This document shows, piece after piece, positions 14,197-54,078 of a stretch of 64,000 nt of DNA. The position numbers were made by a program, and so were the translations under genes. A model generated the notes under the pieces. It was not told the origin of the DNA, did no database searches, and saw nothing but the letters and a program-made list of their open reading frames with translations. This DNA is from Escherichia phage Cyrano. The stretch is taken from the sequence record OV696614. One strand, 5' to 3'. How positions within the stretch are numbered: the first letter of the stretch is position 1; every line of letters starts with the position of its first letter.

Positions 14197-14367
14197 CGCA
14201 ATTATCTTATTAAGAAAACAATTTGTTTAAAGGGTTAAGAAAATATAACAGCTATTAAGAAACTCTACGATGCCGCAAACGCGGCTCTGGATGTTATTGA
14301 TGATGAAGTATCAAAAGGCTTTCCTGAACCTGATTGGGCGCATCAGCTACGAAACGCTATCGCCGAA

Positions 14368-14670
14368 ATGAATCCACCAGATCCGACCACCGAGGAGACA
14401 GACTGGCAGCGATTCATCCGTATGTACGCTCAGGAAATAGGTCCAACGCCAACGGCAGAGCAGGCAATGCTGCTGAAATACTTCAAAGAGGCGGGAGAGG
14501 ATTTACCAATTGATGACTCAGCATATTGGTTCCACTGCGCATGGCGTAAGTATGACGTGATATTCACACAAGGCATGGGAAGCAAAGATATGGTTGTGTG
14601 GCATCTACTCCATATAGACACAGCCGTTGACAGAGTTATTGAACAGTTTTTCCCTAAACAAGAAGATTGA
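14368..14670 (+). CDS. hypothetical protein; true start may lie upstream at a non-ATG codon
   Basis: Listed ORF starts at ATG 14368, but the same frame stays open and protein-like back to 14239 (…KKLYDAANAALDVIDDEVSKGFPEPDWAHQLRNAIAE-M…) with no in-frame ATG/GTG/TTG; ATT at 14254 is a candidate start. Confidence 0.4.
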   Translation: MNPPDPTTEETDWQRFIRMYAQEIGPTPTAEQAMLLKYFKEAGEDLPIDDSAYWFHCAWRKYDVIFTQGMGSKDMVVWHLLHIDTAVDRVIEQFFPKQED

Positions 14671-14725
14671 TCGCCTATTCATAACTAACAAAATAAGTAA
14701 ACACTAACCACAAAAGGAAAAACAC

Positions 14726-15001
14726 ATGAGAGTTTTAGTTCGAATCGTTACCAGCACTGTCTATGACGTGTTTCCGGTTTTTATGGTCAAAGCCGATGGC
14801 CTTAACGACGAAGAAACTGACGCGCTGATCCAGCGTATTCTCGTTGAATATACAGGTCATGACGCTGATTCAGTGATGGTTGATGATGATGGTGTTTGTT
14901 GGCATAACGGCAACTGTTGGTACGTAGAAGAGACTCAACAAATCAGTGATGAAGATGCCGAACATCTTGAGCGTATTTTAAGCATCAGCACTTTTGAGTG
15001 A
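14726..15001 (+). CDS. hypothetical acidic protein
   Basis: 91-codon ORF preceded by the AGGAAAAACACATG start context seen at many genes in this window. Confidence 0.45.
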   Translation: MRVLVRIVTSTVYDVFPVFMVKADGLNDEETDALIQRILVEYTGHDADSVMVDDDGVCWHNGNCWYVEETQQISDEDAEHLERILSISTFE

Positions 15002-15039
15002 GTTTACAGTAAAATTTATATAAGTTAGTATCTACCTAT

Positions 15040-15219
15040 CATGAAGATTTTTATTGAATACTTGTTACTCATCGTTTCAATAGCTTTTGTCATCGACTGC
15101 ATTTTCACTGGTGTCATTCGTAAAGTCTTTTCCCCGGTGCACGACGTAGTCATAAACGCTTTGGCTATCGTGCTCGTATTTAATTCAGCATTTGATGTAA
15201 TCAAAGAGGTGGCAGCATG
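15040..15219 (+). CDS. small hydrophobic protein (not in supplied ORF track)
   Basis: 59-codon ORF read from the sequence (MKIFIEYLLLIVSIAFVIDCIFTGV...); stop overlaps the ATG of the next gene (ATGA). Confidence 0.3.
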
Positions 15220-15552
15220 AAGGCCATCCCATTCGCGCTGTTGTTCCTTTCTTCGATCGTTGTGGCCGACACCACTGTTTATCAGTGTGAAATGTCTGTA
15301 GCCGACGTTAAGAATGGCGCTCTTACCGACGTCATAAAAGCACCATATGGAGCGATGGTCGTAGACAGCGGCGACCAGTTCTATGTTGTGCGTGACGATC
15401 GAGTGTTGTCATCCCCATATCTCACAAATCGTAATGGCAAATTAACCGGCGTCGGAGAAGACCACTTCGTATACAACAAATACAAGGGCTTCTATGGCGT
15501 TCACGCTTCTCAGCAAAGCTACCTTTTCGATGACTGCAAGGAGGTTGGATAA
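15217..15552 (+). CDS. secreted hypothetical protein
   Basis: N-terminal signal-peptide-like segment MKAIPFALLFLSSIVVA; start overlaps upstream stop. Confidence 0.45.
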   Translation: MKAIPFALLFLSSIVVADTTVYQCEMSVADVKNGALTDVIKAPYGAMVVDSGDQFYVVRDDRVLSSPYLTNRNGKLTGVGEDHFVYNKYKGFYGVHASQQSYLFDDCKEVG

Positions 15553-15764
15553 TGGCATTAACACTGGCAGGTCTGGAAATCGAGAAAACAAGCGGCTACT
15601 GGCGTGCCAAGGGTTTCAAGCAACCTGGCATTCTTGAGCGTCTGGAACGTGAAGATGGGTATATCGTCCACCAGCGGCGTGAATGGCGTATGTACAATCC
15701 AGAAACAGGAAAACTGACTACAAAAGCCGGAACACTTTGGGGTCTGTTGAAGAAAATACACTAA
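15552..15764 (+). CDS. hypothetical protein
   Basis: 70-codon ORF coupled to the upstream gene (ATAATG overlap). Confidence 0.4.
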   Translation: MALTLAGLEIEKTSGYWRAKGFKQPGILERLEREDGYIVHQRREWRMYNPETGKLTTKAGTLWGLLKKIH

Positions 15765-15773
15765 TAGCACCAA

Positions 15774-16250
15774 CCACTGCGGTGAGTAGTCTGCTCACCG
15801 CATTCGTATCCAGCTCATTATCCACTGTAGTCAGTAACAAAACCTTCCTACATATCTGCTAACCACTGTAGCGAGTAGACAGCCTTTCATTCGCATCAAA
15901 CAACCACTATGGTGAGTATTGGAGTGAGATGTCCAGCGGGTATCCACTATGGTGAGTAAGCCTTTGCTGTTTTCAGTGGATATCCACTCGCCACAGTGGA
16001 TACGCTCAAAGATGAGGGCGACAACAACCACTATAGACAGTAAATTTTCCAAGATACCCAGTGACCACTAACCTCGCAGCCCTTGTTTCATCAGTGTTAG
16101 TGATCACTAACATTTAATTCAGTATTTGCATTCTACTGCCTACAGTGGTTATCAACAGATAACGATACTCACTATAGTGGATAGCGAATTACAGATATAA
16201 GTAAGGCTCACTACAGTGGATAGTGAGCCTTACTACTAACTACAGTGGTT
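15774..16250. repeat. iteron array downstream of repA (incA-like), about 11 copies in both orientations
   Basis: Repeated core CCACT(A/G)T(A/G)G / CTA(T/C)AGTGGATA, e.g. CCACTATGGTGAGTA, CCACTGTAGCGAGTAG, CACTATAGTGGATAG, CACTACAGTGGATAGTG, plus the palindrome CCACTCGCCACAGTGG. Confidence 0.7.
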
Positions 16251-16253
16251 GGG

Positions 16254-17309
16254 CTATTTGCGAGTCTTTGCCTTGCGCAACTCTTCGAGAAGCGCCAGTT
16301 CTTCTTTACTCAACATGACCATTTTGCCTTCTTTTTCGTCAGGCACAACGTCGATAATGTCATCTTGATTCTCATCTGGGAGGCTATATTCCGTCTCATC
16401 ATTATCGATTTTTGTTGATATTTGTGCCTGGCGTAACTTTGGCCGCCTATAGTGGATGACGAAGTAGACCGAGTTTCCGCGCTTAACTTCCGTGTAATCG
16501 AGATATCCTATCTCTCGCAGCTGTTCCATAGCCTTTCTTACCGTCGCATTCTGAGTAATAGTGCGACTTGTCAGATTAAGTCTGGCGCGTAAACGGGCTA
16601 GTGATATTGGTGCCGGATCAGGCGGCAAACTTTCAATAAAAGTATAAAGCGCCTGAGCGGATTCTTTTCTTGAGAGTTCGTTTATAGCCCGGAGTTGCAG
16701 AAGAACCTTTTTGTCGAACTGGTAGAGTTCGAAAATCTTGGGATCTGCTTTCAGTTCGACCGTATCGTGCTTGACACTATATTTTGCCGTTTGCACAAGA
16801 TGCGTTACGTAAAACTCATCAGAGCCTTTGCTACGGAACGAGATGGTATTTGTGGCAATACGGCTTAGCGAACTGTCCAGGCGTTTGCGTAACTTCGCTG
16901 ATGACCTGGCGGTCGGAATGCCACACAGCCTTACAAACTCAACGAACGGCAACGTGACAGTATCGCCAACGACCTTGTGTTTGGCAAACGCGTGGATTAT
17001 TCCCACCCACGTTTTAAAGTCGTTATCCATATCAAGCCGAAGGCCAGAGATCCTTATGTCTTCGTACCCTTCGGCTTTTGCCAGAGACAGCTGTTTGAGT
17101 TCAGCAGAGGCATCCATAGAGACCATTTGCCCCTTTCTTCCTCTGGATGTCGATTTCAGCGTCGGAACGAAGAGGCCCAGACGCATCAAAGCAACAGGCT
17201 GAACAGTGTTATTAGTGTTAGGAACCAACGTAACAACTTCGCCTGTCTTTTTATCTGTTTCTGAAAATGCTTCAACGATCGCTATGTTTTTATTGCCGTT
17301 TTCGCTCAT
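16254..17309 (-). CDS. repA: iteron-binding replication initiator (RepA/Rep_3-like)
   Basis: 351 aa flanked on both sides by iteron arrays; C-terminal half has a winged-helix-like pattern typical of Rep_3 initiators (…ALYTFIESL…[12 protein letters not shown]…[19 protein letters not shown]…). Confidence 0.65.
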
Positions 17310-17355
17310 TCCAAATGTCTCTTGTTATTCGACGGCTTTGGTGGCCTTTGCTGAT

Positions 17356-17473
17356 TACAGTGGATAGTAGCACTCATCACAGCGGTTATCCTACCGTCTA
17401 TAGTGGTTTTTCTCCTCTCTATAGTGGTTGCTTTGCTCCCTATAGTGGATTATTCGCTCTCTATAGTGGATAT
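17356..17473. repeat. iteron array upstream of repA (incC-like), 22-bp periodicity
   Basis: CTATAGTGG repeated four times at 20-22 bp spacing (17397-17473) plus two degenerate copies (TTACAGTGGATAG, CACAGCGGTTATC). Confidence 0.7.
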
Positions 17474-17474
17474 C

Positions 17475-17966
17475 GATCATGTCTGAAGGCAGATGGCACA
17501 ACGGTTTGAGGTGGGCGGGGATCTTATTGGGTCTTTATGGGTCTCTTTGGTTCTCTTTGTGATCTGAATTACTGGATCGGGCCTGTGGATAAAAATCAGA
17601 GGATTTCAAGAACAGGTAACTCTACTCTTCTGTGGATATTTAAGGACATAAGAATCATGACTAAGAGTAGAGTTTAAAATATATCTATGTATATCAGTAT
17701 GTTAATGAAGAATTAAGTCATTAAGTTATCCATAAAAGACAATGTGCTCTACTCTCTACAGTGGATATATACAGCTCTCCAGAGTGGTTGTTTTACTCTT
17801 CATAGCGGTTATTCAGCTCTCTACAGAGGTTTCTTTGCTCTCCATAGTGGATGGCAACACCCTTTCAGACCAGTAACCGCAACGGCTAGAGGCGATCGGG
17901 GATCTCTTTGGATCTTCTATTTGATCTTACTTGGGATCTCTTATTTGGATCTATCCAGTGGATAAC
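17475..17966. promoter_or_regulatory. origin-like region: DnaA boxes, AT-rich segment, second degenerate iteron set and GATC clusters
   Basis: Perfect DnaA box TGTGGATAA at 17585-17593 and near-matches at 17631, 17726 and 17958; degenerate 21-22 bp iterons at 17744-17870; six GATC sites within 17894-17951; a related degenerate block at 17510-17578. Confidence 0.55.
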
Positions 17967-18052
17967 TGGGATAAGTAAAACAGGCAAATGCAGATTAAGG
18001 TATGCCTAATGAGTTATCGTAGCATCGGCCAATAACTACTGAAAAAACGATT

Positions 18053-18697
18053 ATGGATCTAAAACGCACGCGCTGGGTTCGTCGTCTTGAGGACGGCTCC
18101 TACACTATCGAATCAAATTCCAACCTGAATAAGCAGAAGTTACTTTGTGATATCTGCGGTATAGCGGCGAAGTGCCCGATCTACGAAACCAGAATTAAAC
18201 TTGATAAGGCTGGTGTGAACTTTCATTTGAATAGTTGTATCAGGTACGTTCCATTGCTCGCATTTCGTAAACCGATCATCGGATTGGATGCGCCCTACTT
18301 CAACACACTCCGTTCAGGAGTAACGTGGCGAGATCGTTTAACACCAGACAAACTGATTTGCCTTGTATCCGCAGATACAGGAAAAATCATTCGTTTTGGG
18401 AAAGTAGACAAGGTTTACTCAGGCCCAGTTGACGAGATGTTGCGGAAACACAGCCGGTTTAATCACCTCTGCATGGGTGGTGAGAAAATCGAGAAGGTTG
18501 AAGAAGTGATCCGCAAATCCTACGGACACTTCCTGACCAAAGATAGCCTGCTCACTGCAATCTACATCAGACATGTAAAACGTGAGTTCGACCTTGAATA
18601 CCATAGCGAAGAAGAACTGAACCTTGTCGATCCACGTCCTAAAGCTGGCGTCATAAGCATAAATGCAGCGCGTAAAAAGCCCACTGACGCGCTGTAA
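18053..18697 (+). CDS. hypothetical protein
   Basis: 214-codon ORF next to the origin region; no recognisable motif. Confidence 0.45.
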   Translation: MDLKRTRWVRRLEDGSYTIESNSNLNKQKLLCDICGIAAKCPIYETRIKLDKAGVNFHLNSCIRYVPLLAFRKPIIGLDAPYFNTLRSGVTWRDRLTPDKLICLVSADTGKIIRFGKVDKVYSGPVDEMLRKHSRFNHLCMGGEKIEKVEEVIRKSYGHFLTKDSLLTAIYIRHVKREFDLEYHSEEELNLVDPRPKAGVISINAARKKPTDAL

Positions 18698-18951
18698 CCC
18701 TCCAGATCGTATATTGGCGTAGATAGAATCTACGCCCCCTCAAAATAGCTCTCATAGCGTTCTACAGTGATCCAGTCTTATTTTTAGTCATACAGACAAG
18801 CAAAGTTGCGCCACGATAAATAGGTATATACTTACTTATAAATTTTGTATATTAAGGCGCTCGTTTCATTCCTAACATACCGTTATGCATAGTTGTTTAC
18901 CTCCTCATTGCTCTTAGAATTTGTATCAAAATAACCACAAAGGAAAAACAC

Positions 18952-20037
18952 ATGACTTTGCCATACGGCGTCATTTCTGACTGCCACTACCACAAATGGG
19001 ATGCGTTCTCCACGACGAACGCTGAGGGGCTTAACTCCAGACTTGAAATACAGTTGGAAGCAACGAAAGAAGCAGCCATCGCCATGAAGAAGGCCGGTTG
19101 TAAGTACATGTTGGTTGCCGGTGATACATTTCACGTCCGAGGAACTGTGTCCCCTTCTGTTTTGCATTACGTAACTGAAACGTACAAGTGGATTATCAAC
19201 GAGCTTGATCTGACAGTAGTAATGCTGGCCGGTAATCACGATCTTGAAACCAACGATTCAGTATATAGCGCCAACGCAGCAGCATCGCTGAGTTCTATCG
19301 GCGTGGTAATCGTATGTGGCAAGCGCCCACACTCAATAAAAATTGGTGATGTGACTGTCCACCTGATTAGCTGGCGTAACAATCATGCGGAGCTTATCAG
19401 CGATCTGAAAGCATTACGTAAGAGCGTAGAAGGTGATAATCATGACGTTGTTATCCATACATCCATTAACAAAGCCATTCCAACAATGCCTGACGTCGGT
19501 ATCGATGCGCAGGAGTTAAAGGATATCGGCTTTCGTCTCGTGCTTAGTGGGCATTACCACAACCACAAAGAGGTCATTCCTGGAGTTATCAGTGTCGGTG
19601 CACTGACTCATCAAAATTGGGGAGATGTTGGATCTCTGGCTGGCTACATGATCGTAAACCCGGACGGCAGTTTCAGTCACTACGAAACCAGTGCGCCTAA
19701 ATTCATTAACCTGGAAGATGATGTTGCTGATGACCAAATTCGCGGCAACTACGTGCGTTTCCGCGCCGTAATTGAGAACGATGAAGAAGGCATTAAGTAC
19801 CAGAACATCCTCAAAACAATGGGTGCAAAAGGTGTCGTGTGCAACTTCATCCGTAAGTCATCAATGATGGAAGGGACAGCCAGCACAACTGAAACCAGCA
19901 AAATCGATAGCCTGGGAGAGTCGGTATCTGCTTATTGCAAGATTGTCCACGATACTGACGGCGGATTTGATCTGAGCAAATTGGATATTTTGTGTCAGGA
20001 AATCCTCACCGAAGCGGAGAGTTCGGAGGCTGTGTGA
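18952..20037 (+). CDS. sbcD: SbcD/Mre11-family nuclease (T4 gp47-like)
   Basis: Calcineurin-like phosphoesterase motifs in order: SDCHY, AGDTFH, AGNHD, SGHYH. Confidence 0.8.
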   Translation: MTLPYGVISDCHYHKWDAFSTTNAEGLNSRLEIQLEATKEAAIAMKKAGCKYMLVAGDTFHVRGTVSPSVLHYVTETYKWIINELDLTVVMLAGNHDLETNDSVYSANAAASLSSIGVVIVCGKRPHSIKIGDVTVHLISWRNNHAELISDLKALRKSVEGDNHDVVIHTSINKAIPTMPDVGIDAQELKDIGFRLVLSGHYHNHKEVIPGVISVGALTHQNWGDVGSLAGYMIVNPDGSFSHYETSAPKFINLEDDVADDQIRGNYVRFRAVIENDEEGIKYQNILKTMGAKGVVCNFIRKSSMMEGTASTTETSKIDSLGESVSAYCKIVHDTDGGFDLSKLDILCQEILTEAESSEAV

Positions 20038-20075
20038 AGCAAAGTCGTTATGGGAGCTTTCGAGACTTTGCCATC

Positions 20076-20270
20076 ACGATGAAAAGACTTGAACGAGGCC
20101 AGACGGTGATGTTTCACAAGCCCTACCCGCCACAAGGAAATCCCGTAGCGTTTTATCTTGGAAGGTTAACAAGAAAAGGCGTATTGAGGCGCAGATCCTT
20201 CCCGGCGCATACGGAGTTCAGATTGAAAGAAGGTCAAAAGCTAACACACGGTATCAAAGGTGTTATATGA
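20076..20270 (+). CDS. small ORF between sbcD and sbcC (hypothetical)
   Basis: Open frame spanning the 229-nt gap between the two nuclease genes; start chosen at an internal ATG. Weak support. Confidence 0.25.
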   Translation, partial: TMKRLERGQTVMFHKPYPPQGNPVAFYLGRLTRKGVLRRRSFPAHTEFRLKEGQKLTHGIKGVI

Positions 20271-22183: not shown

Positions 22184-22916
22184 ATTAAGCCGCTCGCAGT
22201 TTTTGCAGGTATTTGCAGTGATGCAGTCGATAAAACTGATCAATGGGCATACTTCCAATGGTGCGGCTCCACGTATTCTGTGGGGCAGCAACAATATTGA
22301 CGGAGTACAATTCGCCGCGTTGCTTGGTCTAATATCCGAGACGCCATTGATGCAAAGTTTGAAATCACTACCACCTGGATGTATTGCGCCGATCCTGATT
22401 AATCCTTTTGTTGAGGGGGGATATCTTCCCAACGTCGGGCCTGGGTTTATTGCATCCCATGAAACTGAAGATCTTAACATTAATAGCGAAGGGTTCTTTG
22501 GGGGAATGGGTGCGCATCACTGTATGGCTTTCACGAACCTTATTCGACTTGCCAATAAGCGGGTGGATAGTTTGGCATCGCCAGGTGATGCTTTTACTGG
22601 TTTCCTTATCCAAAGGAGGGATAAAAAGTACAGTGCGGACAAACTACAGTTTGTTGGTAAGTATGGAGAAATGGTAGAAATCGAACTTCAGCTCCCTCAT
22701 GTTTTAGCAAACGATAGTGCAGACAGTCGGAGGCTATTGGGCATCATGCGTCATTTCATAGCAAGTGGTGTTAAACATGCCGCAGATAAACGTGTCACGC
22801 AGGAAAATGAGTATTCAGACTTTGCAAACTATCCCCAACCAACGTTGCAAACGGCAATAGTAGCCAATTCGTTGGAGGCGAGATTATTGGAAAACCCTAT
22901 ATGGGGAACATGGTAA
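22173..22916 (+). CDS. hypothetical protein
   Basis: 247-codon ORF overlapping the sbcC stop; no recognisable motif. Confidence 0.5.
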   Translation: MSFKLSRSQFLQVFAVMQSIKLINGHTSNGAAPRILWGSNNIDGVQFAALLGLISETPLMQSLKSLPPGCIAPILINPFVEGGYLPNVGPGFIASHETEDLNINSEGFFGGMGAHHCMAFTNLIRLANKRVDSLASPGDAFTGFLIQRRDKKYSADKLQFVGKYGEMVEIELQLPHVLANDSADSRRLLGIMRHFIASGVKHAADKRVTQENEYSDFANYPQPTLQTAIVANSLEARLLENPIWGTW

Positions 22917-22925
22917 GGAGACTAT

Positions 22926-23495: not shown

Positions 23496-23568
23496 TTTCA
23501 TTGATAGGTAAGTGCTTATCTATTAACATGGGCCACTATATTTAGTGGCCCTCTTTATTTGGTGATAC

Positions 23569-25884: not shown

Positions 25885-25990
25885 CATATGGTGGGGGATA
25901 TCCCCACCTTCTCTTTGATTTGTAAGCCTTGTTTAAACACATAAGATAACAACTTGTTTAAACCCACCAAAAAAGAAAAAGGAAAAACAC

Positions 25991-34681: not shown

Positions 34682-35275
34682 ATGACGACGAAGACACCAG
34701 CCCGATCGCAAGCAAAAACTCGCAAAAAAGCCAAAAACAAAAATTCTCCCCGCACCAATCCCACAACGTCTGTCGTAGAGTTCAATCCCCAGCTTAAAAC
34801 CGTGAAAATCTTCAGTGATGGCTCTTGCCTTAAAAATCCGGGTGGCCCGGGCGGTTACGGTATAGTTCTCCAGTATCGTGGTGAGGAACGCGAGTTCTCA
34901 GATGGTTTTCATAGCACCACCAATAACCGCATGGAGATGATGGGGGCACTTATCGGGCTGGAGCGTTTGAAATATCCATGCAACGTTATTTTGCACTCTG
35001 ATAGCCAGTATCTGAAAAACGGCATGACACTGTGGATGAAATGGTGGAAACGCAATGGATGGATGACTTCTGACAAAAAACCGGTAAAGAATGTTGATCT
35101 GTGGAAGCGTCTGGATGAGGCCGCAAGTCGACATAATGTTCGCTGGAAGTGGGTTAAAGGTCACGCCGGGCATCGTGAAAATGAAATATGTGATCGACTC
35201 GCGAAGATCGCAGCTTTTTCAGCAGCAGATATGCCTCACAAGAAAGATATTGGTTTTGTTTATAACAAGTGGTAA
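34682..35275 (+). CDS. rnhA: ribonuclease HI with basic N-terminal extension
   Basis: [17 protein letters not shown]...TNNRMEMMG...[41 protein letters not shown]...[20 protein letters not shown] closely tracks E. coli RNase HI. Start set at ATG 34682 (AGGAG RBS); the listed 34631 GTG lies inside a palindrome. Confidence 0.85.
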
Positions 35276-36113: not shown

Positions 36114-36206
36114 CGGCTGTTAGTGCATATGCATTGACCATCTTTGCGTAAGCAATTTATGAAACTATAAAACAACTTGTTTTGACAAATAACAAAAGGA
36201 AAACAC

Positions 36207-36820: not shown

Positions 36821-36929
36821 TTGACCGAAATAGAGAGTTTGCACCTTTACGTTTAGCTTGCTCCCCTTTTATGCCACATCACAATAAAGCCAATAAGAAA
36901 ACAACTTGTTTAAGCATTAGGAAAAATAC

Positions 36930-37499
36930 ATGTGCAAGAAATGCAAAGCGATAGCTGATGAACAAAACGCCTTATTCGAAGAAATGGATGCTAATGAGCT
37001 GGTCAAAATGTTAGCCATTCTTCGAGGAATAGAAGACGTTTCCATATTTGAGAGAGTGGTTACAGCACTTAATTTTGAGTCCACCTTTGAAGAGCCAACT
37101 CAGGTTGTAGCTTTAGCACATCATTTCGGTGTTCATTATCTTGCTGAAAAAGAGCGCGCTGATAAGTTGCAGGCGACTTTGGATATGGTGAGCGAGACTC
37201 AACGAACTGATGACACTAACAAGAGTGAGGCGATTATTGCCAGCAAAGATCGTGAAATTGCTGGGCTTAAATCCTCTCTAACGATGTTGATGTCTGCGTT
37301 CAATCTTATGTCTTCTCAGGCGGGTTATAAAATGCCATCACTAAACAGCGATGATCCGATGGCCGTTCGTCAGCTTTTGGGAGCAATGGCCGACCAACTC
37401 GACGACACAAAGAGTCGCCTTGAAGACATGATGCGTGAGTTAAGCCATCGACATAACCTCGCAACACAACCACACAAAGTCTTTCAAAGCTCTAATTGA
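36930..37499 (+). CDS. hypothetical protein
   Basis: 189-codon ORF preceded by the AAAACAACTTGTTT upstream motif. Confidence 0.45.
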   Translation: MCKKCKAIADEQNALFEEMDANELVKMLAILRGIEDVSIFERVVTALNFESTFEEPTQVVALAHHFGVHYLAEKERADKLQATLDMVSETQRTDDTNKSEAIIASKDREIAGLKSSLTMLMSAFNLMSSQAGYKMPSLNSDDPMAVRQLLGAMADQLDDTKSRLEDMMRELSHRHNLATQPHKVFQSSN

Positions 37500-41387: not shown

Positions 41388-41524
41388 ACGCTACAAATCC
41401 TTCGGCATGAATAAATAAAGGCCATAAGTTGTGGCCTTAAATAAATTGTTTTCTACCTTTTCTTATTTGTGAAAATAACCAGCACTTGGTAGTGCTTATG
41501 TAACAGCAAAGAAGAGAAAAACAC

Positions 41525-42076
41525 ATGAGTAACAAAATCGAAAATCCCGTAGTTCTCATTCACAAGCGCGAGAACCACGACTCCTATGCGGTGGCGATCA
41601 CCAATGGGAGTCACGATTTTTACGATGGCCTGCTAATGGCCTCAGTGTCGCCTGATAAGGCAGACAACTCTTTTGCCGTCTTCGCTATGGTTGGTTACTA
41701 CATGGCTGCCGAAATTGAGAAGTTGCGGGCGCAGAGAGACGCATTAGCGGCGGAGAATGTGGCATTGCGATCTAAGGCTGCGGAACTGGCACATGAAGCG
41801 TCAAAAATTTACTCGGCATATAACGCCACTATCACAGAGCCTGACGGGGATTTTATGGACATGCAGACATTGCATGAAATGCAGTGCATAGAAACTCCAG
41901 CCACCGATGCTTTTCTGGCTGAAGTACGTGCGCAGGGCGTGGATATGGCTCGTAACGCGATGATTGATTTTGTTGATGGTGAAGTTGGGCCAAACAAGAA
42001 CGTTCCGGGGCTGATTAGAGGCGCAGAGATATGCGTAAGTATTGCTGAACAGCTTCGTAAAGGAGTCATCCAGTGA
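41525..42076 (+). CDS. hypothetical protein
   Basis: 183-codon ORF with AGAGAAAAACACATG start context. Confidence 0.45.
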   Translation: MSNKIENPVVLIHKRENHDSYAVAITNGSHDFYDGLLMASVSPDKADNSFAVFAMVGYYMAAEIEKLRAQRDALAAENVALRSKAAELAHEASKIYSAYNATITEPDGDFMDMQTLHEMQCIETPATDAFLAEVRAQGVDMARNAMIDFVDGEVGPNKNVPGLIRGAEICVSIAEQLRKGVIQ

Positions 42077-44895: not shown

Positions 44896-44915
44896 TACTG
44901 TATGTGTATACAGTA
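44896..44915 (+). promoter_or_regulatory. LexA (SOS) box upstream of the UmuD'-like gene
   Basis: TACTGTATGTGTATACAGTA is a perfect CTGT-N8-ACAG palindrome, 17 nt upstream of the start codon. Confidence 0.7.
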
Positions 44916-44931: not shown

Positions 44932-45321
44932 ATGGGCTTCCCTTCTCCTGCGGCGGATTATGCTGAGAGCCGTATTTCTCTTGATCAGCAGATAATTAGA
45001 CATCCTTCAGCGACCTACTTCATGAGGGCAGCTGATAGTCATCATCGTGAGGGAATATTACAGGGTGCATTGCTGGTGGTCGATTCCTCACTTACCCCGG
45101 TTGATGGTTCTCTGCTTGTATGCGCTCTGGATGGGGAATATCGCGTAAAAAGATACCGGAAGTACCCACGTCAGCATCTGGAGGATTTAAGAACCGGTAA
45201 GAAGGAAGCATTGCCAAAGGATGACGATGGATGCACGGGCAGCAATGCCGTGTTTGGTGTGATCACTCACATTATCAACGACGCAAGAAGTGGCGAGTTT
45301 GATGATTGTCCCGTGATGTAG
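44932..45321 (+). CDS. humD: UmuD'-like protein (HumD-like, S24 LexA-type peptidase fold)
   Basis: Starts MGFPSPAADY..., i.e. at the position where UmuD is cleaved to UmuD'; HPSATYFMRA and VFGVITHII blocks match UmuD; in-frame stop 15 nt upstream; no umuC gene follows. Confidence 0.75.
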   Translation: MGFPSPAADYAESRISLDQQIIRHPSATYFMRAADSHHREGILQGALLVVDSSLTPVDGSLLVCALDGEYRVKRYRKYPRQHLEDLRTGKKEALPKDDDGCTGSNAVFGVITHIINDARSGEFDDCPVM

Positions 45322-45333
45322 GAGAACTGATTA

Positions 45334-45358
45334 GGCGGTGCATTGCACCGCCTTTTTA
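45334..45358 (+). terminator. rho-independent terminator between humD-like gene and apbC
   Basis: Hairpin GGCGGTGCA-T-TGCACCGCC followed by TTTTT. Confidence 0.55.
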
Positions 45359-46459
45359 TCACACTGCGCGGAATGCGATTTCGCCAGGTATTACTTCACC
45401 TTGCCAATACATTTGGGCAGCAACGCGATCTGCGAGGTCACGATAAATAGCCGTAAATTCGCTATCTGGACGACTAATAACGGTTGGTGTTCCGTTATCC
45501 AGATCTTCACGAAGAGAGATATGAAGTGGCATTTGGCCTAACAACTGCGTGTTGTATTTCTCGGCCAGTTTCTGTGCGCCACCGGTGCCAAAAATTGGCT
45601 CGTGATGACCGCAGTTACTGCAAATATGCACACTCATGTTTTCGACGATACCCAGTACCGGCACTTCGACTTTTTCGAACATCACAATGCCTTTCTTCGC
45701 ATCGATCAGCGCGATGTCTTGCGGCGTAGTTACCACAACCGCACCAGTTACAGGAATGTTCTGCGCCAGCGTCAACTGAATATCACCAGTGCCCGGCGGC
45801 ATATCGAGAACGAGATAGTCCAGATCAGGCCACAGTGTTTCCTGCAACATCTGCATCAGCGCCTTGCTGGCCATCGGTCCACGCCACACCATCGCATTGT
45901 CGTCAGTGACCAGATAACCAATTGAATTGGTTGCCAGGCCATGAGACATGATAGGTGCCATGTGAGTACCGTCAGGTGAGGTTGGACGTTGGTTTTCCGC
46001 GCCCAGCATGGTTGGAATTGATGGCCCGTAGATATCGGCATCCAAAATACCAACTTTCGCACCTTCAGCCGCCAGCGCCAGCGCCAGGTTTACCGCCGTG
46101 GAGGATTTACCCACGCCGCCTTTACCGGAGCTGACCGCAATGATGTTCTTCACGCCATTAATGCCTGGTTGGTTTTTGACGCGCTTAAGCGTGGCAATGT
46201 TGTACGACAGCTTCCAGTCAATAGCCTTTGCGCCAGTGATACGGAGCAGATCACCACTACATTGCTCTTTCAGATCTTCAAAAGGCTTATTCCACACGAA
46301 AGGCATGATTAGTTCGACATGCAGTGTGTCATCCATCAACGCAACATGGTGTAACGCTTTAAGCGTAGTCAGGTTGTGTTTCAGGGTTGGGTGCTGAAAA
46401 TTAGCCAGCGTACCGGCTACCATTGCTCTCAGGGCATCCGGCGATTTGGACTCGCTCAT
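45359..46459 (-). CDS. apbC: Fe-S cluster carrier ATPase ApbC/Mrp
   Basis: 366 aa with deviant Walker A SGKGGVGKSSTAVNLA and CSNCGHHEP motif; matches the enterobacterial Mrp protein by recall; divergent from metG as on the E. coli chromosome. Confidence 0.9.
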   Translation of the reverse strand: MSESKSPDALRAMVAGTLANFQHPTLKHNLTTLKALHHVALMDDTLHVELIMPFVWNKPFEDLKEQCSGDLLRITGAKAIDWKLSYNIATLKRVKNQPGINGVKNIIAVSSGKGGVGKSSTAVNLALALAAEGAKVGILDADIYGPSIPTMLGAENQRPTSPDGTHMAPIMSHGLATNSIGYLVTDDNAMVWRGPMASKALMQMLQETLWPDLDYLVLDMPPGTGDIQLTLAQNIPVTGAVVVTTPQDIALIDAKKGIVMFEKVEVPVLGIVENMSVHICSNCGHHEPIFGTGGAQKLAEKYNTQLLGQMPLHISLREDLDNGTPTVISRPDSEFTAIYRDLADRVAAQMYWQGEVIPGEIAFRAV

Positions 46460-46616
46460 CCCGTCTCCTTTATTTTAATTTGCGCAATTGTCGCCTTGTA
46501 GTGTACTCCAGCTACGACATTTAATCATTTATGAGAAATGCTGTTATCACATGGCAGACATAAGGCCATTTTGTTACTATCAAGCCCCTTTTCACTACAA
46601 AGAAGTAATGCCTACT

Positions 46617-48650: not shown

Positions 48651-48672
48651 TTAAACAACCTCTCTTCGCAAT

Positions 48673-48696
48673 GCCCGGCAACACGCCGGGCATTTT
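48673..48696 (+). terminator. rho-independent terminator after metG
   Basis: Hairpin GCCCGGC-AACAC-GCCGGGC followed by ATTTT. Confidence 0.65.
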
Positions 48697-48811
48697 CATA
48701 TAGACACAATCCCTTCTGATTTACACAGTACCTAAAACAATTTGTTTTCTGCCTTTTGTTGATTGAGATAATAAGCCACATAAGAAAACAAATTGTTTCG
48801 GAGTGGTTGAA

Positions 48812-49111
48812 ATGTTGAACATTACCCAAGCCTACCAGGTGGCATTGATCAGTTCATCTCATACATCAGAGGAAGATGCTCGCCGATTCATGATCGCAAG
48901 CAATGAGCTGGATTGGGTTTCACAAATTGATGGCGGTTGTATTGTCCACGCCGGGTTACAGGATGATGTCTGGAAAGAGGACTTGCGTCGATATGGTATA
49001 TCCGAAGGCGCGATTGCTAACATTCAGAAAGTACTTGATGTAGGCTTTGACTCTGTACATTTTGATTGTGGTGCACCGGTCGTTGAAGGGCTTGAGTGCT
49101 GGAACTGGTAA
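48812..49111 (+). CDS. hypothetical protein
   Basis: ATG with GGAGTGG RBS, preceded by two copies of the AAAACAAnTTGTTT motif. Confidence 0.45.
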   Translation: MLNITQAYQVALISSSHTSEEDARRFMIASNELDWVSQIDGGCIVHAGLQDDVWKEDLRRYGISEGAIANIQKVLDVGFDSVHFDCGAPVVEGLECWNW

Positions 49112-49156
49112 CAGATATTAAAGCATTGGTAGTTTGTTTTTAGGATTATCAAAGAA

Positions 49157-49891
49157 ATGAAAAAGTTGAAAAGTTTAGAAATCCCTGGAACTGGTTATAA
49201 ATTCTTTATGGACAACGCGGAGTGTGCACCTAACGCGTTGGAAAAAATACAAAGTCTTATCAACAGCCTTACTGAAGAAGCGAAAGAACTGAAGAGCGAG
49301 GCGACAAAGGACAATACAGCTAAAATCCAATGCTTAAATCTCGTCTCTTATTGTTTATATCAAGTATCCAAAACACTGATTAAAGGCAATATCTATTACG
49401 ACGATGAAGACACCTCGACACCTGAAGAAAAAGATAGCGATGAAGAACTCTATGAAGATATCTCTACTAGTGCGGGTCACGCTGCCTTCGATGCTATGGG
49501 TGAATCGTCAGGCATCAGATCATTTGTTGAACAGAACAATTCGACAATAATGATTGAGTACTGTGAACAAACAAGCTCCAAGGCCATACATGTTCTTCAC
49601 GATGTTGCTGCAGGGGTTCGCTGTGAGGCTGAAGCGGTCAGAAAAGATGTATTTGGTGCAGACAGTAATACCGTGAAAGCGTTTATCAACAGTGCTCTGC
49701 TAAATTCTTACTCAAACCTTATAGTCAATGCGGCACTATGCGCAAATTCAGGTGAAGAACACATTGTCATAACTGAAACCAAACATGAGCATCAACAGTC
49801 ACCAACCATAGAAGAGGTAACTGCATTGGCTATCAAACAGGCGAGTGAAATTAGTGATGAAATTCTCTCTCTGCTAAACAAAACTAAGTAA
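49157..49891 (+). CDS. hypothetical protein, AT-rich gene
   Basis: 244-codon ORF with low GC and an acidic central segment; no recognisable motif. Confidence 0.45.
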   Translation: MKKLKSLEIPGTGYKFFMDNAECAPNALEKIQSLINSLTEEAKELKSEATKDNTAKIQCLNLVSYCLYQVSKTLIKGNIYYDDEDTSTPEEKDSDEELYEDISTSAGHAAFDAMGESSGIRSFVEQNNSTIMIEYCEQTSSKAIHVLHDVAAGVRCEAEAVRKDVFGADSNTVKAFINSALLNSYSNLIVNAALCANSGEEHIVITETKHEHQQSPTIEEVTALAIKQASEISDEILSLLNKTK

Positions 49892-49994
49892 AACATTGAT
49901 AATGGCGGTCACAATTTGATTCTTTTCTATAAGAATCCGTTGATCGCCACTACTCCCCTTCCATACCCGCAACCACATCCTTAAATATCAATAA

Positions 49995-50790
49995 GTTATA
50001 GTTGTTTATACAATCAAGAAAACAACTGAATAACAGATCAACGAAACGTCAACGCTTTCACCCGATTTGGCCTAAAAAATTGACGTTTTCACACATCACT
50101 GCTTATACCCGTAATTCTACGCAGCAGACAGCACCACAGCGTTCAATTTTCACCACAGACGACTCAACACACTACCAACAAAAACACACGCTCAAAATCG
50201 CTCCCGTTGCGTTACATAACCATATAAACAACTTATTTTCAGGCATAACAAAACAACTAAATAACACATATGCCATTACCCAAAACAACCAACCTCTTTA
50301 TGGCAGGCTACCGAAAAGACCCACCTCTTCTTCCCAGGCTACCGGACAACCAACCTAACTTTCACAGGCAATCCGAAAACATTCATACGCGCGATACCCA
50401 CGACACGCCATTACCCAAACAGCGAAGAAACACCAGAATCACTGAAACCCCAACGAAGCCTGTAACCGCAAGGTTTCTCTCAATCCCAAAAGACACGAAA
50501 CATAACAATCACGGGAAACGCCATTACCCAATACACGAATAACTACAAAAGCCTTTCACACACTCCAGACAAACAACTCAAACACAATAACGAAAGGAAT
50601 CGCCCACCTGCCATTACTCCATACACGGAGAAGAACAATCACCAAAACGACGAGAACACCCCATAGAAGAACCACCGCAAAACTAACGAAACCACATACA
50701 CCGACAGAGAAAACAACACACCCAATTCACCAACAGAAATAGTCGCCGTATAGAACGTTCTGGAAGGAGTGAGCATTAACGCCTATAGAG
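49995..50790. repeat. G-depleted CA-rich non-coding segment with GCCATTACCCAA direct repeats
   Basis: About 800 nt with very few G on the plus strand; GCCATTAC(C/T)CAA(A/T)ACA recurs at about 50271, 50408, 50519 and 50600; CAGGCTACCG recurs at 50303 and 50336. Confidence 0.55.
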
Positions 50791-50939
50791 AGGTTGAAAC
50801 AGATAAAACACGAAGAAAACACAACATGTATAGCGAACAAGACAGGTATGTATAAGTGGGGAGGGAAGGAGGGGTGTCGCCTCCTTTTTCGTATTTATTC
50901 AACTCCTGATTTTATCCCCCGTAACACCCCTACGGTCAG

Positions 50940-51100
50940 CCTTCGGTCCATACAGGGAAAAGGCTGCATCCCGCTACAGAAACGGCTGGGTTGCCTTCGG
51001 GGAACGGCTGGAGGTTTTCAGGGAAACGGTCGAGTTGCCTGTGTGGATTTCGGGAAAAGGCTCGATGCCGGTTCAGGAACGGCGGCGTACCGGTATAGCG
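50940..51100. repeat. array of GGAAACGGC-type direct repeats
   Basis: CAGGGAAAAGGCTGC, CAGAAACGGCTGG, GGGGAACGGCTGG, CAGGGAAACGGTCG, CGGGAAAAGGCTCG and CAGGAACGGCGGCG at roughly 20-25 bp spacing; a similar array lies at 54604-54720. Confidence 0.55.
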
Positions 51101-51425
51101 TGAGGGAGAGTTGCGGCTACCCACCTGTAATGTGCGGGAAGAAGAGAGGCGCTCACGTGCAGGCGAACTTACTTACCGCAGGATTCCCTCTGAATGCCCA
51201 ACTACAGCGTAATTGTGCCAGACAGCCAACGGGCCACAATCGATTTCAGTAGGTTTTCGGGGAGATGATTATTCTGCCCACCAGCCACCTTCGGCCACTA
51301 AATCAGAATAATGTAAAAAGTGTACTCGGTACTGAACCTGAAAACTCACTGCCAAAACCACATTCACCGGAATAAAATCCTTTTTCGCCTTTGCGTTATT
51401 GCGATAATAACACCATCAAGAAAAC

Positions 51426-51776
51426 ATGTTGTTTAAGGATTGCTTTATGTTTGCAAATATCGACATCAACCAAATTAAGAAATTGACTCAAAAAGAGTTT
51501 GACCAGTTTTATGAGTTAGAAGGTTGGTCTTCCACTCTGATTAATTCAAGATGGGTGCTGGAACTGATGACTCGTGATGACGCACCTGCTTTGATGATCA
51601 GCGACCTGGGTGAAGATGCTGACTTTATGGATATGAGCGAATTTTGTGTGGACACATACAACCGCAGCCAGAAGTACTACTTCACATGCGATAGCGAAAA
51701 TGACGTGATTTCTAAGGTCTATCTTCACCTCGTCCAGCATTGGGACGTTCAGGAGTTTCTTGAGGTATTCGCGTAA
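51426..51776 (+). CDS. hypothetical protein (small-gene cassette)
   Basis: 116-codon ORF preceded by CGATAATAACACCATCAAGAAAACATGTTGTTT promoter-like motif. Confidence 0.45.
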   Translation: MLFKDCFMFANIDINQIKKLTQKEFDQFYELEGWSSTLINSRWVLELMTRDDAPALMISDLGEDADFMDMSEFCVDTYNRSQKYYFTCDSENDVISKVYLHLVQHWDVQEFLEVFA

Positions 51777-51930
51777 TCACAACCAAAGCCAGCAATGCTG
51801 GCTTAACTTAATCTGTAGCCGCAGGGAAGAACCTGCATATCGCTCATGCACCTGATCAATATGCTTTGTAGCCGTTTTCTTACTGGTATTATTTACGCCA
51901 TTGAGAAAACAAGTTGTTTACGGAGTTGTG

Positions 51931-52242
51931 ATGAAAAAATCATTGGTTCTTGGTCTGGACAAAGACCAGAAGAGAAAAGAGAAGCCTGCGCTGGTTGCTC
52001 AATTAACTTTGCTGGACATCGTTGCCAATGGAACCTCTATTCGTCTGTTCCGTGAAACAGCGGTGTCTTTCGATAAAAACACCTTTACTCGTTATGTAAT
52101 GAATGTTCGTCGCCAGCGTGGAAAAGGCTGGGTGGCATTTCAAAGAATGTGGCCGGAACATCAGCTCGAACTGGCTTTGATGGAAGTTAACCGCGTGGCC
52201 CAGCAAGAGATTCAGAGAGCATCAGTGATGGCAATAGCCTGA
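51931..52242 (+). CDS. hypothetical protein (small-gene cassette)
   Basis: Start set at ATG 51931 (GGAG RBS) after the AAAACAAGTTGTTT motif; followed by a terminator hairpin at 52277. Confidence 0.45.
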   Translation: MKKSLVLGLDKDQKRKEKPALVAQLTLLDIVANGTSIRLFRETAVSFDKNTFTRYVMNVRRQRGKGWVAFQRMWPEHQLELALMEVNRVAQQEIQRASVMAIA

Positions 52243-52276
52243 TAATGTGCAAGTGGTAATTAGTCGACAGTACGAC

Positions 52277-52307
52277 AGCCCCGCCATCCTTACGGGGCTT
52301 TTTTTGT
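52277..52307 (+). terminator. rho-independent terminator
   Basis: Hairpin CCCCG-CCATCCTTA-CGGGG followed by CTTTTTTT. Confidence 0.55.
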
Positions 52308-52369
52308 ATTGTAAGTACATACTTACGATCATAGAATATAAAAATAACCAAAACACTACGGAGAGTGAA

Positions 52370-52765
52370 ATGACCGTTAAACGCGAAAAACTGACAGTTG
52401 ATGTTTACTATGCCTCTGAAACCGCCGAAGGTAAGAATGTGGCAAAAATCACCGTTGTTACGTACAACACCGAAACTGGCGCCGAAGTCCAGGCCAGTAC
52501 GATCGTGCGTAAAGGTGATGCCTCCGGCGGCGAGTACGCGACTCAATACCAGTCTATTTTCGATGCAACTGACCCGCTGCTGCTGAAAATCGAGAACTAC
52601 TTCCGCCAGGTTGATGAAGAGGTGTTTGAAACCATGATGAATATGGTTAACACCGTATTCGCCTCCAGCCTGAATACCAACACTACCTGGATTGGTCAGT
52701 ACGGCCTGCGCATTACCTCTGGCATTCCTGCCGACACCTTAATCCCTGAAAGCGTATTCGCTTAA
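52370..52765 (+). CDS. hypothetical protein (small-gene cassette)
   Basis: Start set at ATG 52370 with GGAGAG RBS; followed by terminator hairpin AATGGCGCG-TAAA-CCGCGCCATT. Confidence 0.45.
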   Translation: MTVKREKLTVDVYYASETAEGKNVAKITVVTYNTETGAEVQASTIVRKGDASGGEYATQYQSIFDATDPLLLKIENYFRQVDEEVFETMMNMVNTVFASSLNTNTTWIGQYGLRITSGIPADTLIPESVFA

Positions 52766-52882
52766 TCCTCTTTAAATGGCGCGTAAACCGCGCCATTTTA
52801 TTAAGCCCGATAACAATTTGTTTTCTGCCTTATCTGATTTGTGAAAATGATTTCACTGAAGCAACTTAATAAGGAAACCATC

Positions 52883-53257
52883 ATGGGACTTGATATCTAT
52901 ATCGAGACACAGCCTAAAAACGATCTGAATAACGAGGCATCCAGAAAGCGGGTTGCTTACTTCCGTAAGTTCAATGCGCTCGTTGGGTGGATGGAGCGCA
53001 ACGTAGGTGAAGTCGAAAATTGTGAGCTTTTAGAATTAACGATGAATGACATTTGTTTTCTGAAGGCTCATTTGATGCACATAAACGAAAGTAATTGCGA
53101 AGAGTACTTGCCTACCCGGGAAGGTTTTTTCTTCGGCAGTCAGGAGTACGATGAAGGTTACTGGCATGATGTGGGGGAGTTGAAAGAGCTTGTGGAAGAT
53201 CTGATTAAGAACCACGACTTTCACAATAACAGACTGACCTTCTGCGCCTGGTGGTAA
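52883..53257 (+). CDS. hypothetical protein (small-gene cassette)
   Basis: Start set at ATG 52883 (AAGGAAACC RBS) because the listed start lies inside the conserved upstream motif. Confidence 0.45.
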   Translation: MGLDIYIETQPKNDLNNEASRKRVAYFRKFNALVGWMERNVGEVENCELLELTMNDICFLKAHLMHINESNCEEYLPTREGFFFGSQEYDEGYWHDVGELKELVEDLIKNHDFHNNRLTFCAWW

Positions 53258-53407
53258 ATATGGGCGATTTCAAGAAACGCCTGAAGGAGAGAGCCGAGAT
53301 GGTCAGAAAGCGAAACGCCTCTTCTGTCATCAGATACGCAAGGCAGTTTAGTCGCAACAACAAATCAGTTGAGGAAAAGATCCTTAGCGTAATCGGGCGA
53401 TAATTAT

Positions 53408-53433
53408 TAAGGCCACCAGCATTGGTGGTCTTA
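53408..53433. terminator. hairpin element, one of a near-identical pair flanking the 53587 gene
   Basis: AAGGCCACCAGCATTGGTGGTCTT here and AAGGCCACCAATGCTGGTGGCCTT at 53880-53906, each followed by AAATGAC. Confidence 0.5.
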
Positions 53434-53586
53434 AATGACTTTTAATAACCGAAGGTTAGTTTGAAACCTGGCTATCAACTTCCAGAACCTTTCTTGTGTA
53501 TTCAGCCTGTATTAACTTCTTTTATGCCTTATCTACACTGCGATAATTACACCAACAAGAAAACAACATGTTTACGCAGTGAGGAT

Positions 53587-53874
53587 ATGCTCATGACTGA
53601 TTTCACCATTACCCCTAAAGCACAAAATGTATTCCTTGAATCATGGCTGGACTTGCCGGAAACAGAACAGCAAGAAATGGATCATGTGGATTATGACGAG
53701 CAGGTAAGCACGCGATTCTTCCACTTTGAGGGATGCGTTTACGACATTGCCGACTTCATGCGAGATGACCGCTTCCCTGAATGGCACGCAAGCTATCCAC
53801 TAAACGCCTTTGCCATGCTGATGATCCGTGTGGATGATTCAGGGGATACCATCGACATCGGTCTGCTCCACTAA
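53587..53874 (+). CDS. hypothetical acidic protein (small-gene cassette)
   Basis: Start set at ATG 53587 after the GATAATTACACCAACAAGAAAACAACATGTTT motif; bracketed by the hairpin pair. Confidence 0.45.
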   Translation: MLMTDFTITPKAQNVFLESWLDLPETEQQEMDHVDYDEQVSTRFFHFEGCVYDIADFMRDDRFPEWHASYPLNAFAMLMIRVDDSGDTIDIGLLH

Positions 53875-54078
53875 AGATTAAGGCCACCAATGCTGGTGGC
53901 CTTAAATGACCATCCTGTTTCCCGCAGGCTAAAAACACCAACCTCTTACCTCCAGGCAACCGACAAACCCACCTGTTCCCGTCCGGCTACCGCAACTTTC
54001 CACTTTGACGCCTTATTCGTACAACGATAATTAACACCAACAAGAAAACAATTTGTTATTTACGATAAGGAATTAATC

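Follow-up and report, generated by a model that had tools for sequence, protein, structure and literature searches.

A recurrent 15-bp palindrome in the promoters of SSU5-like phage-plasmids as the probable operator of a repressor regulon

The Cyrano window and its recurrent palindrome

The stretch of DNA analysed here, 64,000 nucleotides (nt) long and referred to throughout as the window, belongs to Escherichia phage Cyrano (sequence record OV696614), and the element in question is a short palindrome that recurs upstream of many of its genes and is probably an operator. The window is positions 44,380-108,379 of Cyrano/pLF82, or an essentially identical element; after subtraction of 44,379, 75 of 76 Cyrano gene coordinates fall on intact open reading frames (ORFs) having a start codon and a single stop. 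Since the window is collinear with the Cyrano gene table, the published RNA sequencing (RNA-seq) of the lysogen is directly applicable to it. The entire window is a single SSU5-like phage-plasmid (E. coli LF82 'Cyrano'), and the initial annotation was correct in using the motif to tie both flanks of the apbC-metG block to one element. By the Cyrano annotation, 84 % of the window is coding. It carries genes for replication, recombination and nucleotide metabolism, repA with its iterons and the apbC-metG insert, as well as small-gene cassettes, an FljA-like gene, a helicase operon and a ParB-like operon, and its 3' end lies just short of the terminase genes. The segment at 48-56 kb shares 94-97 % identity with two Escherichia phage records, CMS-2020a and PhiR41_1, and has Salmonella phage SSU5 and Klebsiella phage-plasmids as more distant relatives; plasmids in the E. 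coli complete-genome set gave 262 matches to the query region. The relatives compared were PhiR41_1, SSU5, the first 100 kb of the Klebsiella phage pJN2-26, and loci such as L008, L010 and L014-L019; Pfam scans took in about 54 of the window's proteins, a subset of its ORFs.

The 15-base palindrome AAAACAAnTTGTTTT occupies 13 places in the window, where about 0.3 matches are predicted by chance. With up to one mismatch allowed, AAAACAANTTGTTT gives 21 matches over the two strands, whereas dinucleotide shuffles average 0.27 and never exceed 3. Dyad scoring of two 7-nt arms, in which at least 12 of 14 positions had to match (scores of 11 or below are at chance level, about eight per shuffled window), yields 13 distinct sites, at 14215, 25946, 36169, 36898, 41438, 48734, 48785, 50225, 51421, 51906, 52810, 53560 and 54045; a doubtful extra dyad at 56435 lies inside a gene, at its 3' end. 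When every inverted repeat with 5-nt arms and a spacer of 0-6 nt was counted without bias, AACAA-N1-TTGTT came first in the window (nine observed against 0.10 expected, p = 2e-15) and also first in PhiR41_1, while in SSU5 it was second only to its overlapping form AAACA-N3-TGTTT; over the three genomes, the p values ranged from 1e-15 to 1e-26. The recurrence of a near-palindrome, as first proposed, is therefore borne out. The site coordinates given at that time were right to within 1-6 nt, although the copy listed as partial at 41444 lies at 41438-41452 and the one at 50225 had been overlooked. The motif had also been described as usually followed by AGGAAAAACACATG, which was an overstatement: at up to two mismatches that sequence occurs ten times in the window and only four times after a dyad site. 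It is a general ribosome-binding context and not part of the motif.

Ten of the 13 window sites are intergenic by the Cyrano annotation, and the remaining three overlap nothing but annotated 5' ends that are themselves doubtful; in SSU5, all 21 dyads are intergenic by the RefSeq annotation. Three annotated Cyrano starts are probably wrong, those at 51426 (within a dyad), 53524 (upstream of a dyad) and 52847 (within a predicted -10 hexamer), and ATG codons with good Shine-Dalgarno sequences are present at 51447, 52883 and 53593. The ORF of CYRAN_103 (50002-50358), which spans the 50225 site, looks non-coding.

Promoter register and conservation of the sites

Alignment of about 20 sites gives a consensus that runs, 5' to 3', from CCTTT through roughly 12 nt to (TGn)GATAAT, then AACACCAATAAG and AAAACAAnTTGTTTA, and finally over a variable distance to the Shine-Dalgarno sequence and ATG. 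The dyad, 15 bp long with a free central base, has the core AAACAA-N-TTGTTT. Among 27 clear cases drawn from five genomes, 21 have 12-13 nt between hexamer and dyad, and the spacing of the dyad to the -10 element has a standard deviation of 2.8 nt, whereas its distance to the start codon ranges over 7-83 nt (standard deviation, 17.5). The plus strand of the window has eight strict TG-extended -10 matches, and six of these have a dyad no more than 45 nt away, against an expectation of about 0.15. Extended -10 elements of the sigma-70 type, reading TGnGATAAT, TGnTATTAT or TGnGAAAAT, are found at 41468, 48764, 51400, 51884, 52840 and 53539, and the remaining sites have weaker -10-like hexamers. 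No -35 hexamer was found at the dyad promoters. Thus, of the longer conserved block with -35- and -10-like hexamers that had been reported for the 51-54 kb cassettes, the block itself and its -10-like hexamer (usually TG-extended) stand and the -35 hexamer does not. The suggestion that the motif marks promoters for a special form of RNA polymerase is not supported: the hexamers are ordinary sigma-70 extended -10 elements, and among the proteins covered the Pfam scans detected neither a sigma factor, a factor of the MotA/AsiA type nor an RNA polymerase of phage origin.

If transcription starts about 7 nt past the hexamer, the dyad would cover roughly +5 to +20. In a second arrangement, seen at 41438, 48734 and 52810 and at their equivalents in relatives, the dyad stands 18 nt upstream of the extended -10 and is centred near -38, often immediately after a GC hairpin. 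Either way, the dyad lies over the predicted start region or the -35 region, as a repressor operator would.

The individual sites illustrate both layouts. The palindrome AAAACAATTTGTTTA at 14215-14229 is preceded by a terminator hairpin and lies about 24 nt 5' of CYRAN_58, a DUF7238 gene; ATAACAACTTGTTTA (25946-25960) lies 30 nt 5' of nrdB (25991) and has its SSU5 orthologue at 70218; and the perfect palindrome AAAACAACTTGTTTT (36169-36183) lies 23 nt 5' of a TerB-family gene (36207). At 36880-36912 on the plus strand, a -10-like CACAAT (36880-36885), a 12-nt gap and AAAACAACTTGTTTA (36898-36912) precede a gene start at 36930, and this island is kept in SSU5, pJN2-26 and PhiR41_1. The upstream-type site at 41438-41476 (plus strand) consists of a GC hairpin, TAAATAAATTGTTTT (41438-41452), CTACCTT and TGtGAAAAT (hexamer 41471-41476), with the palindrome centred near -38 of the predicted promoter for the gene at 41525. 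A double arrangement occupies 48734-48799 on the plus strand, where the perfect palindrome AAAACAATTTGTTTT (48734-48748) and AAAACAAATTGTTTC (48785-48799), their centres 51 bp apart, flank a single -10 element, TGaGATAAT (hexamer 48767-48772), ahead of the gene at 48812; the same pairing recurs in SSU5 (88318/88369) and in L010. The palindrome TAAACAACTTATTTT (50225-50239) is immediately 3' of a -10-like TTACAT/TACATA and has orthologues in SSU5 (90739), pJN2-26 (25868) and L008 (1597/1622).

The cassettes that follow carry their sites on the plus strand as well. At 51403-51435, TGcGATAAT (hexamer 51403-51408) is followed after 12 nt by AAAACATGTTGTTTA (51421-51435), the likely start codon being the ATG at 51447; at 51887-51920, TGgTATTAT (hexamer 51887-51892) is followed after 13 nt by AAAACAAGTTGTTTA (51906-51920) and a gene start at 51931. 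The site at 52810-52848 is again of the upstream type, with ATAACAATTTGTTTT (52810-52824), CTGCCTT, TGtGAAAAT (hexamer 52843-52848) and a likely start codon at 52883. At 53542-53574, TGcGATAAT (hexamer 53542-53547) stands 12 nt before AAAACAACATGTTTA (53560-53574), with the likely start codon at 53593, and at 54026-54059 a GATAAT (54026-54031) stands 13 nt before AAAACAATTTGTTAT (54045-54059), upstream of the gene for a 160-amino-acid (aa) protein that begins at 54079.

The dyad recurs at orthologous intergenic positions in SSU5 and in relatives from Klebsiella, Kluyvera, Buttiauxella, Yersinia pestis and metagenomes, each genome having 15-21 copies; there are 18 in PhiR41_1, 21 in SSU5 and 15 in the part of pJN2-26 that was compared. 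It also occurs in L008, L010 and L014-L019 (L016 being the Y. pestis relative), and it is kept in 20-kb loci whose FljA-like protein is only 54-63 % identical (L008, L010, L017 and L019). When four orthologous spacers are aligned, the -10 element and the dyad stand out as conserved islands in otherwise diverged sequence. Beyond the window, dyads lie 5' of parA, of dnaB and of the cobT/DNA-polymerase operon, and a pair 25 bp apart lies 5' of the terminase genes; the SSU5 structural-gene block (134 to about 29,000) contains none. The parA dyad is 34-35 nt before the start codon in PhiR41_1 (73103), SSU5 (30448) and pJN2-26 (71832), and it is also present in L140-L142. Relatives differing in the motif were sought for covariation with candidate binding proteins, and all of those retrieved keep the same motif.

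The pair before the terminase genes sits in the leader of the late operon (SSU5 55-134; PhiR41_1 45675-45753, beyond the 3' end of the window). There, the second dyad abuts a GC hairpin and a T run that together resemble a terminator, which suggests that the late operon may be subject to attenuation or antitermination.

Silence in the lysogen and the candidate regulators

In the LF82 lysogen, for which expression values per gene, the authors' cut-off of 49 and a background median of 9.8 were taken from published RNA-seq (PMC9928086 S1 Table), the genes directly behind the window sites have values of 5.7-25.5, mostly 5.7-12.8. These genes, all at or near background, are CYRAN_58, 70, 85, 87, 93, 101, 105, 106, 108, 110 and 111. 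The expressed units of the window, that is HicAB, repA, CYRAN_81, the umuD-like gene, apbC, CYRAN_102, CYRAN_109 and the helicase operon, are free of dyads. Two of these, CYRAN_109 (53260-53403; value 58) and CYRAN_102 (49157-49891; value 57), are expressed within an otherwise silent cassette region, and CYRAN_109, a 47-codon ORF adjoining a 12-bp GC hairpin, could be a small RNA.

In our view, the motif probably serves SSU5-like phage-plasmids as a double-stranded DNA operator through which one repressor controls a genome-wide regulon. The dyad symmetry, the instability of the corresponding RNA hairpin, the copies near -38, the register with the -10 element and the silence in the lysogen favour such an operator, the support being circumstantial. 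As RNA, the palindrome would form a hairpin of only -0.6 kcal/mol that is unused in the minimum-energy folds of three 5' leaders, and the arm variants among about 60 sites are one-sided and never compensatory; a structured RNA element was rejected on these grounds. The dyads centred near -38 would lie outside the transcript of the predicted promoters that they occupy. The idea, raised at the outset, of a regulon under one DNA-binding protein fits the dyad with its free central base, its fixed -10 register, its family-wide conservation and the silence of the genes behind it in the lysogen. We infer that a protein binds the dyad, that repression is the effect, and which protein is responsible.

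As envisaged, the phage-plasmid would encode a protein that binds, as a symmetric dimer or as a dimer of dimers, to the 15-bp dyad, which would be built into about 20 sigma-70 promoters per genome (12 in the window) that rely on an extended -10 (TGnGATAAT) without a -35 hexamer. Bound at +5 to +20, the protein would block open-complex formation or promoter escape, and bound over the -35 region, near -38, it would exclude RNA polymerase; the 51 bp between the paired sites at 48.7 kb, about five helical turns, would allow cooperative binding. In the plasmid-prophage state, the bound protein would thereby keep dispersed transcription units off. Within the window these would comprise the small-gene cassettes at 48-54 kb and the units for recombination and nucleotide metabolism; beyond it, they would include dnaB, the terminase/late leader and the early operon of cobT and DNA polymerase. 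Expression of the parA operon would apparently be only damped.

Several points weigh against this account. Despite its good dyad, parA has a lysogen value of 50, so repression is not absolute, and a missing activator could also account for the silence seen by RNA-seq. The sites are judged to be active promoters from their consensus alone, and a simple sigma-70 scan, there being no -35 hexamer, called none of them. Much of the constant spacing is contributed by paralogous cassette promoters, which means that the observations are not fully independent. The site is imperfectly symmetric, with a flanking AAG on the promoter-proximal side only, and the promoter-proximal half-site, as read from site listings, is apparently longer (AGAAAACAA or TTGTTTTCT). 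As the longer half faces the core promoter, the ideal site may be a 19-bp palindrome. Lastly, two dyads also stand on the late leader and SSU5, a lytic phage, would still be encoding the repressor, which makes lytic escape puzzling.

The most durable alternative, though an unlikely one, is that the motif is read in RNA, with the FljA-family protein encoded in the window binding it within about the first 20 nt of 5' leaders, blocking translation and destabilizing the mRNAs of many phage genes. This 173-aa product (56401-56922, minus strand) matches PF03614 at E = 1e-80 and is predicted to have two tandem Hfq/Sm domains; an FljA-like protein is encoded in every relative examined, and in the lysogen its expression is log2 7-8 in several conditions, albeit only about twofold above background in LB. 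There is a precedent, in that FljA proteins act post-transcriptionally on fliC mRNA, which is still detectable under FljA (PMC2652032). The Salmonella fliC leader, AGCCCAATAACATCAAGTTGTAATTGATAAGGAAAAGATC-ATG, contains CAAGTTGT, equal to motif positions 5-12, with G as the central base and 5 nt before the Shine-Dalgarno sequence; over the full dyad, however, that match is only 10 of 14, with an estimated chance probability of about 0.01-0.04. In about 70 % of cases, a -10 element precedes the site and a Shine-Dalgarno sequence follows it, often at a distance of 0-10 nt, and the asymmetric 5' AAG is oriented with the gene, yet the spacing is tighter to the -10 element than to the start codon. 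Moreover, reverse-complement symmetry would be meaningless to a protein that binds single-stranded RNA, the hairpin is unstable, and the sites near -38, as well as those between convergent genes, are outside the leader of the gene that they precede. Unlike fliC mRNA under FljA, the target mRNAs are at background in the lysogen, although mRNA decay could explain this. An extension of this alternative, which is marginally less likely again, is that the tandem-Hfq protein reads the dyad as RNA, in addition to or in place of a DNA reading, as a global post-transcriptional regulator of about 20 phage leaders and that Salmonella FljA, with its target CAAGUUGU, is a domesticated fragment of that regulon.

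Improbable to a further degree is a positive promoter element, in which a phage activator or polymerase-specificity factor, absent in lysogens, would be needed at the dyad or at the whole 50-nt module including the GCCTT box, so as to define a temporal class comparable to the T4 MotA-dependent middle promoters or the Mu Mor/C-dependent promoters. The want of -35 hexamers would suit such a scheme, as would the position of the upstream-type dyads near -38, which is that of a class II activator, and silence behind the motif is what a missing activator would also produce. The element has many T4-like early genes, among them those for gp32, UvsW-like and UvsY-like proteins, and its GCCTT/CCTTT box is fixed 12 nt upstream of the -10. 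The T4 MotA box has the same 12-nt spacing to the -10; its consensus is TGCTT, which the box here does not match. Against a positive role, most dyads are downstream of the -10, at about +5 to +20, which is unusual for activators; TG-extended -10 elements are usually self-sufficient; neither MotA and AsiA nor a sigma factor or RNA polymerase is among the window proteins scanned; and the dyad is also found at parA, which serves plasmid maintenance and is expressed in the lysogen.

The weakest alternative is that a host protein of the Enterobacterales (IHF-like, or another nucleoid or global regulator) binds the dyad or that the dyad is a selfish or structural repeat devoid of regulatory role, and it is very improbable: the motif is invariant from Escherichia to Yersinia while the FljA-like and CI-like regulators diverge to 54-59 % identity, AAACAAnTTGTTT by eye bears a partial resemblance to the IHF core WATCAANNNNTTR, agreeing with it in 7 of 9 specified positions, and several dyads abut GC hairpins at gene ends, but the fixed -10 register and conservation at orthologous promoters speak against a mobile or structural repeat, as does the want of a stable hairpin, such that the properties of REP- or MITE-like repeats (a stable hairpin and no relation to promoters) are not those seen. 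The motif is not known to match any enterobacterial operator consensus, the sites of KdgR, PhoP, ArcA, CRP and LexA presumably differing from it in half-site or in spacing.

To return to the operator, the binder that we prefer, at somewhat less than even odds even if the operator is granted, is CYRAN_29 (phrog_5111), a predicted basic protein of 119 aa encoded right after parA, outside the window. CYRAN_29 is the best remaining candidate because it is conserved (91-93 % identity among E. coli, Salmonella and Klebsiella elements), because its segments RPQGRPTRGK..IKSRTMS.EDE and FTRSDVIRAAI are invariant or nearly so in homologues down to 48 % overall identity, because those divergent elements still have the dyad at their parA and dnaB promoters, and because its own operon promoter carries the dyad and the gene is expressed in the lysogen (value 89). 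Small centromere-binding repressors of type Ib partition systems are likewise encoded after ParA; CYRAN_29 follows a 222-aa ParA and, by eye, has a strand-helix-helix-like pattern. The protein, on the other hand, had no Pfam match and no Protein Data Bank sequence match, and its hhalign profile gave a probability of 0.09 against a ParG sequence. It is a candidate whose DNA-binding fold is putative.

Other candidates were rejected. CYRAN_45, a CI-like XRE repressor encoded next to the integrase and 1.8 kb 5' of the window, is well expressed in the lysogen, but its control region has no dyad and the protein is absent from SSU5, which retains 21 dyads. RepA has its own iterons, unrelated to the dyad. 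The two ParB_N proteins were set aside as silent in the lysogen, like a winged-helix-like protein of 88 aa (63672-63938), and ten cassette proteins and about 20 other small window proteins revealed no DNA-binding domain.

The CYRAN_45 control region has a different palindrome, ATAGGTAAGTnCTTACCTAT, one copy of which is immediately upstream of the repressor gene. This second recurrent palindrome occurs about seven times per genome (about 0.2 expected), with most copies just past stop codons; it is at 23507 and 33060 in the window (weaker at 35275 and 40244), at 88154 in PhiR41_1, and at 2034, 27477, 67778, 77654, 78712 and 84181 in SSU5. It may be the operator of the CI-like repressor or a small hairpin element.

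Related systems, significance and neighbouring elements

The kind of system is familiar, whereas the motif itself seems to be undescribed. No description of it, nor of lysis-lysogeny control in SSU5-like phage-plasmids, was found in the searchable literature, although older papers on pHCM2 or the SSU5 supercluster may contain an earlier description of the motif. As in P1, where C1 holds off the lytic functions of a plasmid prophage, many operator copies are dispersed over about 100 kb and each overlaps a promoter. The P1 C1 operator is an asymmetric 17-mer, ATTGCTCTAATAAATTT, which is bound by a monomer, and c1 itself is preceded by operators. Here, there is a 15-bp dyad of unrelated sequence, without the features of a C1 operator, and, unlike P1 c1, neither the CI-like nor the FljA-like gene has a dyad upstream; no C1-like protein was detected by Pfam among the window proteins scanned. 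The system is not a member of the P1 family, differing from it in sequence, symmetry and protein.

A second likeness is to KorB and KorA of the IncP plasmid RK2 and to omega of the Inc18 plasmid pSM19035, in which one small operator, palindromic or heptad, is reused at many plasmid promoters, including that of the partition operon; in KorB and omega, a partition protein also acts as global repressor. In every relative examined the dyad is on the parA promoter, and it can be read as two inverted 7-bp units, like the omega diheptad. Unlike those systems, which control replication and transfer genes, this one has early, middle and late phage units as its targets; the operator sequence is different, and both the fold and the DNA binding of CYRAN_29 are putative; no centromere-like array of the motif was found. 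FljA, which represses phase-1 flagellin in Salmonella, and T4 RegA, whose targets are early mRNAs, are translational repressors that act on 5' leaders, to which correspond the PF03614 protein, the copies, most of them in predicted leaders near Shine-Dalgarno sequences, and the core shared with the fliC leader; the motif differs in being a dyad that also occupies positions predicted to be untranscribed, and in lysogens its target mRNAs are missing and not just untranslated. With operators such as lac O1 and the LexA box, which are centred at about +11 to +13 or over the -35 and can be paired on the same face of the helix, only geometry is shared, there being no relationship in sequence or protein.

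SSU5-like phage-plasmids are common in clinical Enterobacteriaceae: many plasmids of E. coli and Klebsiella belong to them, as do the pHCM2-type plasmids of S. Typhi and the Y. pestis relative. For these, the motif offers a concrete map of transcription units, a consensus operator and a short list of three candidate regulators. Were the binder the partition protein encoded after parA, it would silence the whole lytic programme and couple plasmid segregation to prophage maintenance, and either that protein or the Hfq-fold FljA homologue would represent a new regulatory logic for plasmid prophages. The FljA homologue, if it is the regulator, would further indicate how the repressor of flagellar phase variation in Salmonella arose in evolution.

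The window has several further elements of possible regulatory interest. The 88-aa product of 63672-63938 (plus strand), the final gene before the late-operon leader, has a weak LexA_DNA_bind match (E = 0.07) and is a candidate late regulator. A third inverted repeat, TAAGT-N4-ACTTA, occurs four times in the window (885, 28221, 52312 and 60733) and eight times in SSU5 (p = 6e-14); the window copies are all intergenic, and one immediately follows TATTAT, the -10-like hexamer in the promoter of the ParB-like operon. The Rep3-family repA (16254-17309, minus strand) is flanked on both sides by at least 14 copies of the Rep3-type iteron CTCTCTAYAGTGGATA, at 15968-16222 and 17352-17964, some of them at 21-bp spacing, in a layout that resembles an origin and copy-control locus. 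In the promoter module 5' of the 53560 site, at about 53528, there is a DnaA-box-like sequence, TTATCTACA, whose SSU5 counterpart (93683-93691) is a perfect box, TTATCCACA. A perfect LexA box, TACTGTATGTGTATACAGTA (44896-44915), stands 16 nt 5' of the gene for a 129-aa UmuD-like S24 peptidase (44932-45321), which is expressed in the lysogen and has no umuC partner; through the two, the ciprofloxacin induction that has been reported for Cyrano could be tied to the SOS response. Finally, the sole Rfam match in the window is a cspA thermoregulator (187.6 bits) at 6163-6581 on the minus strand, before a cold-shock protein gene (6188-6499).

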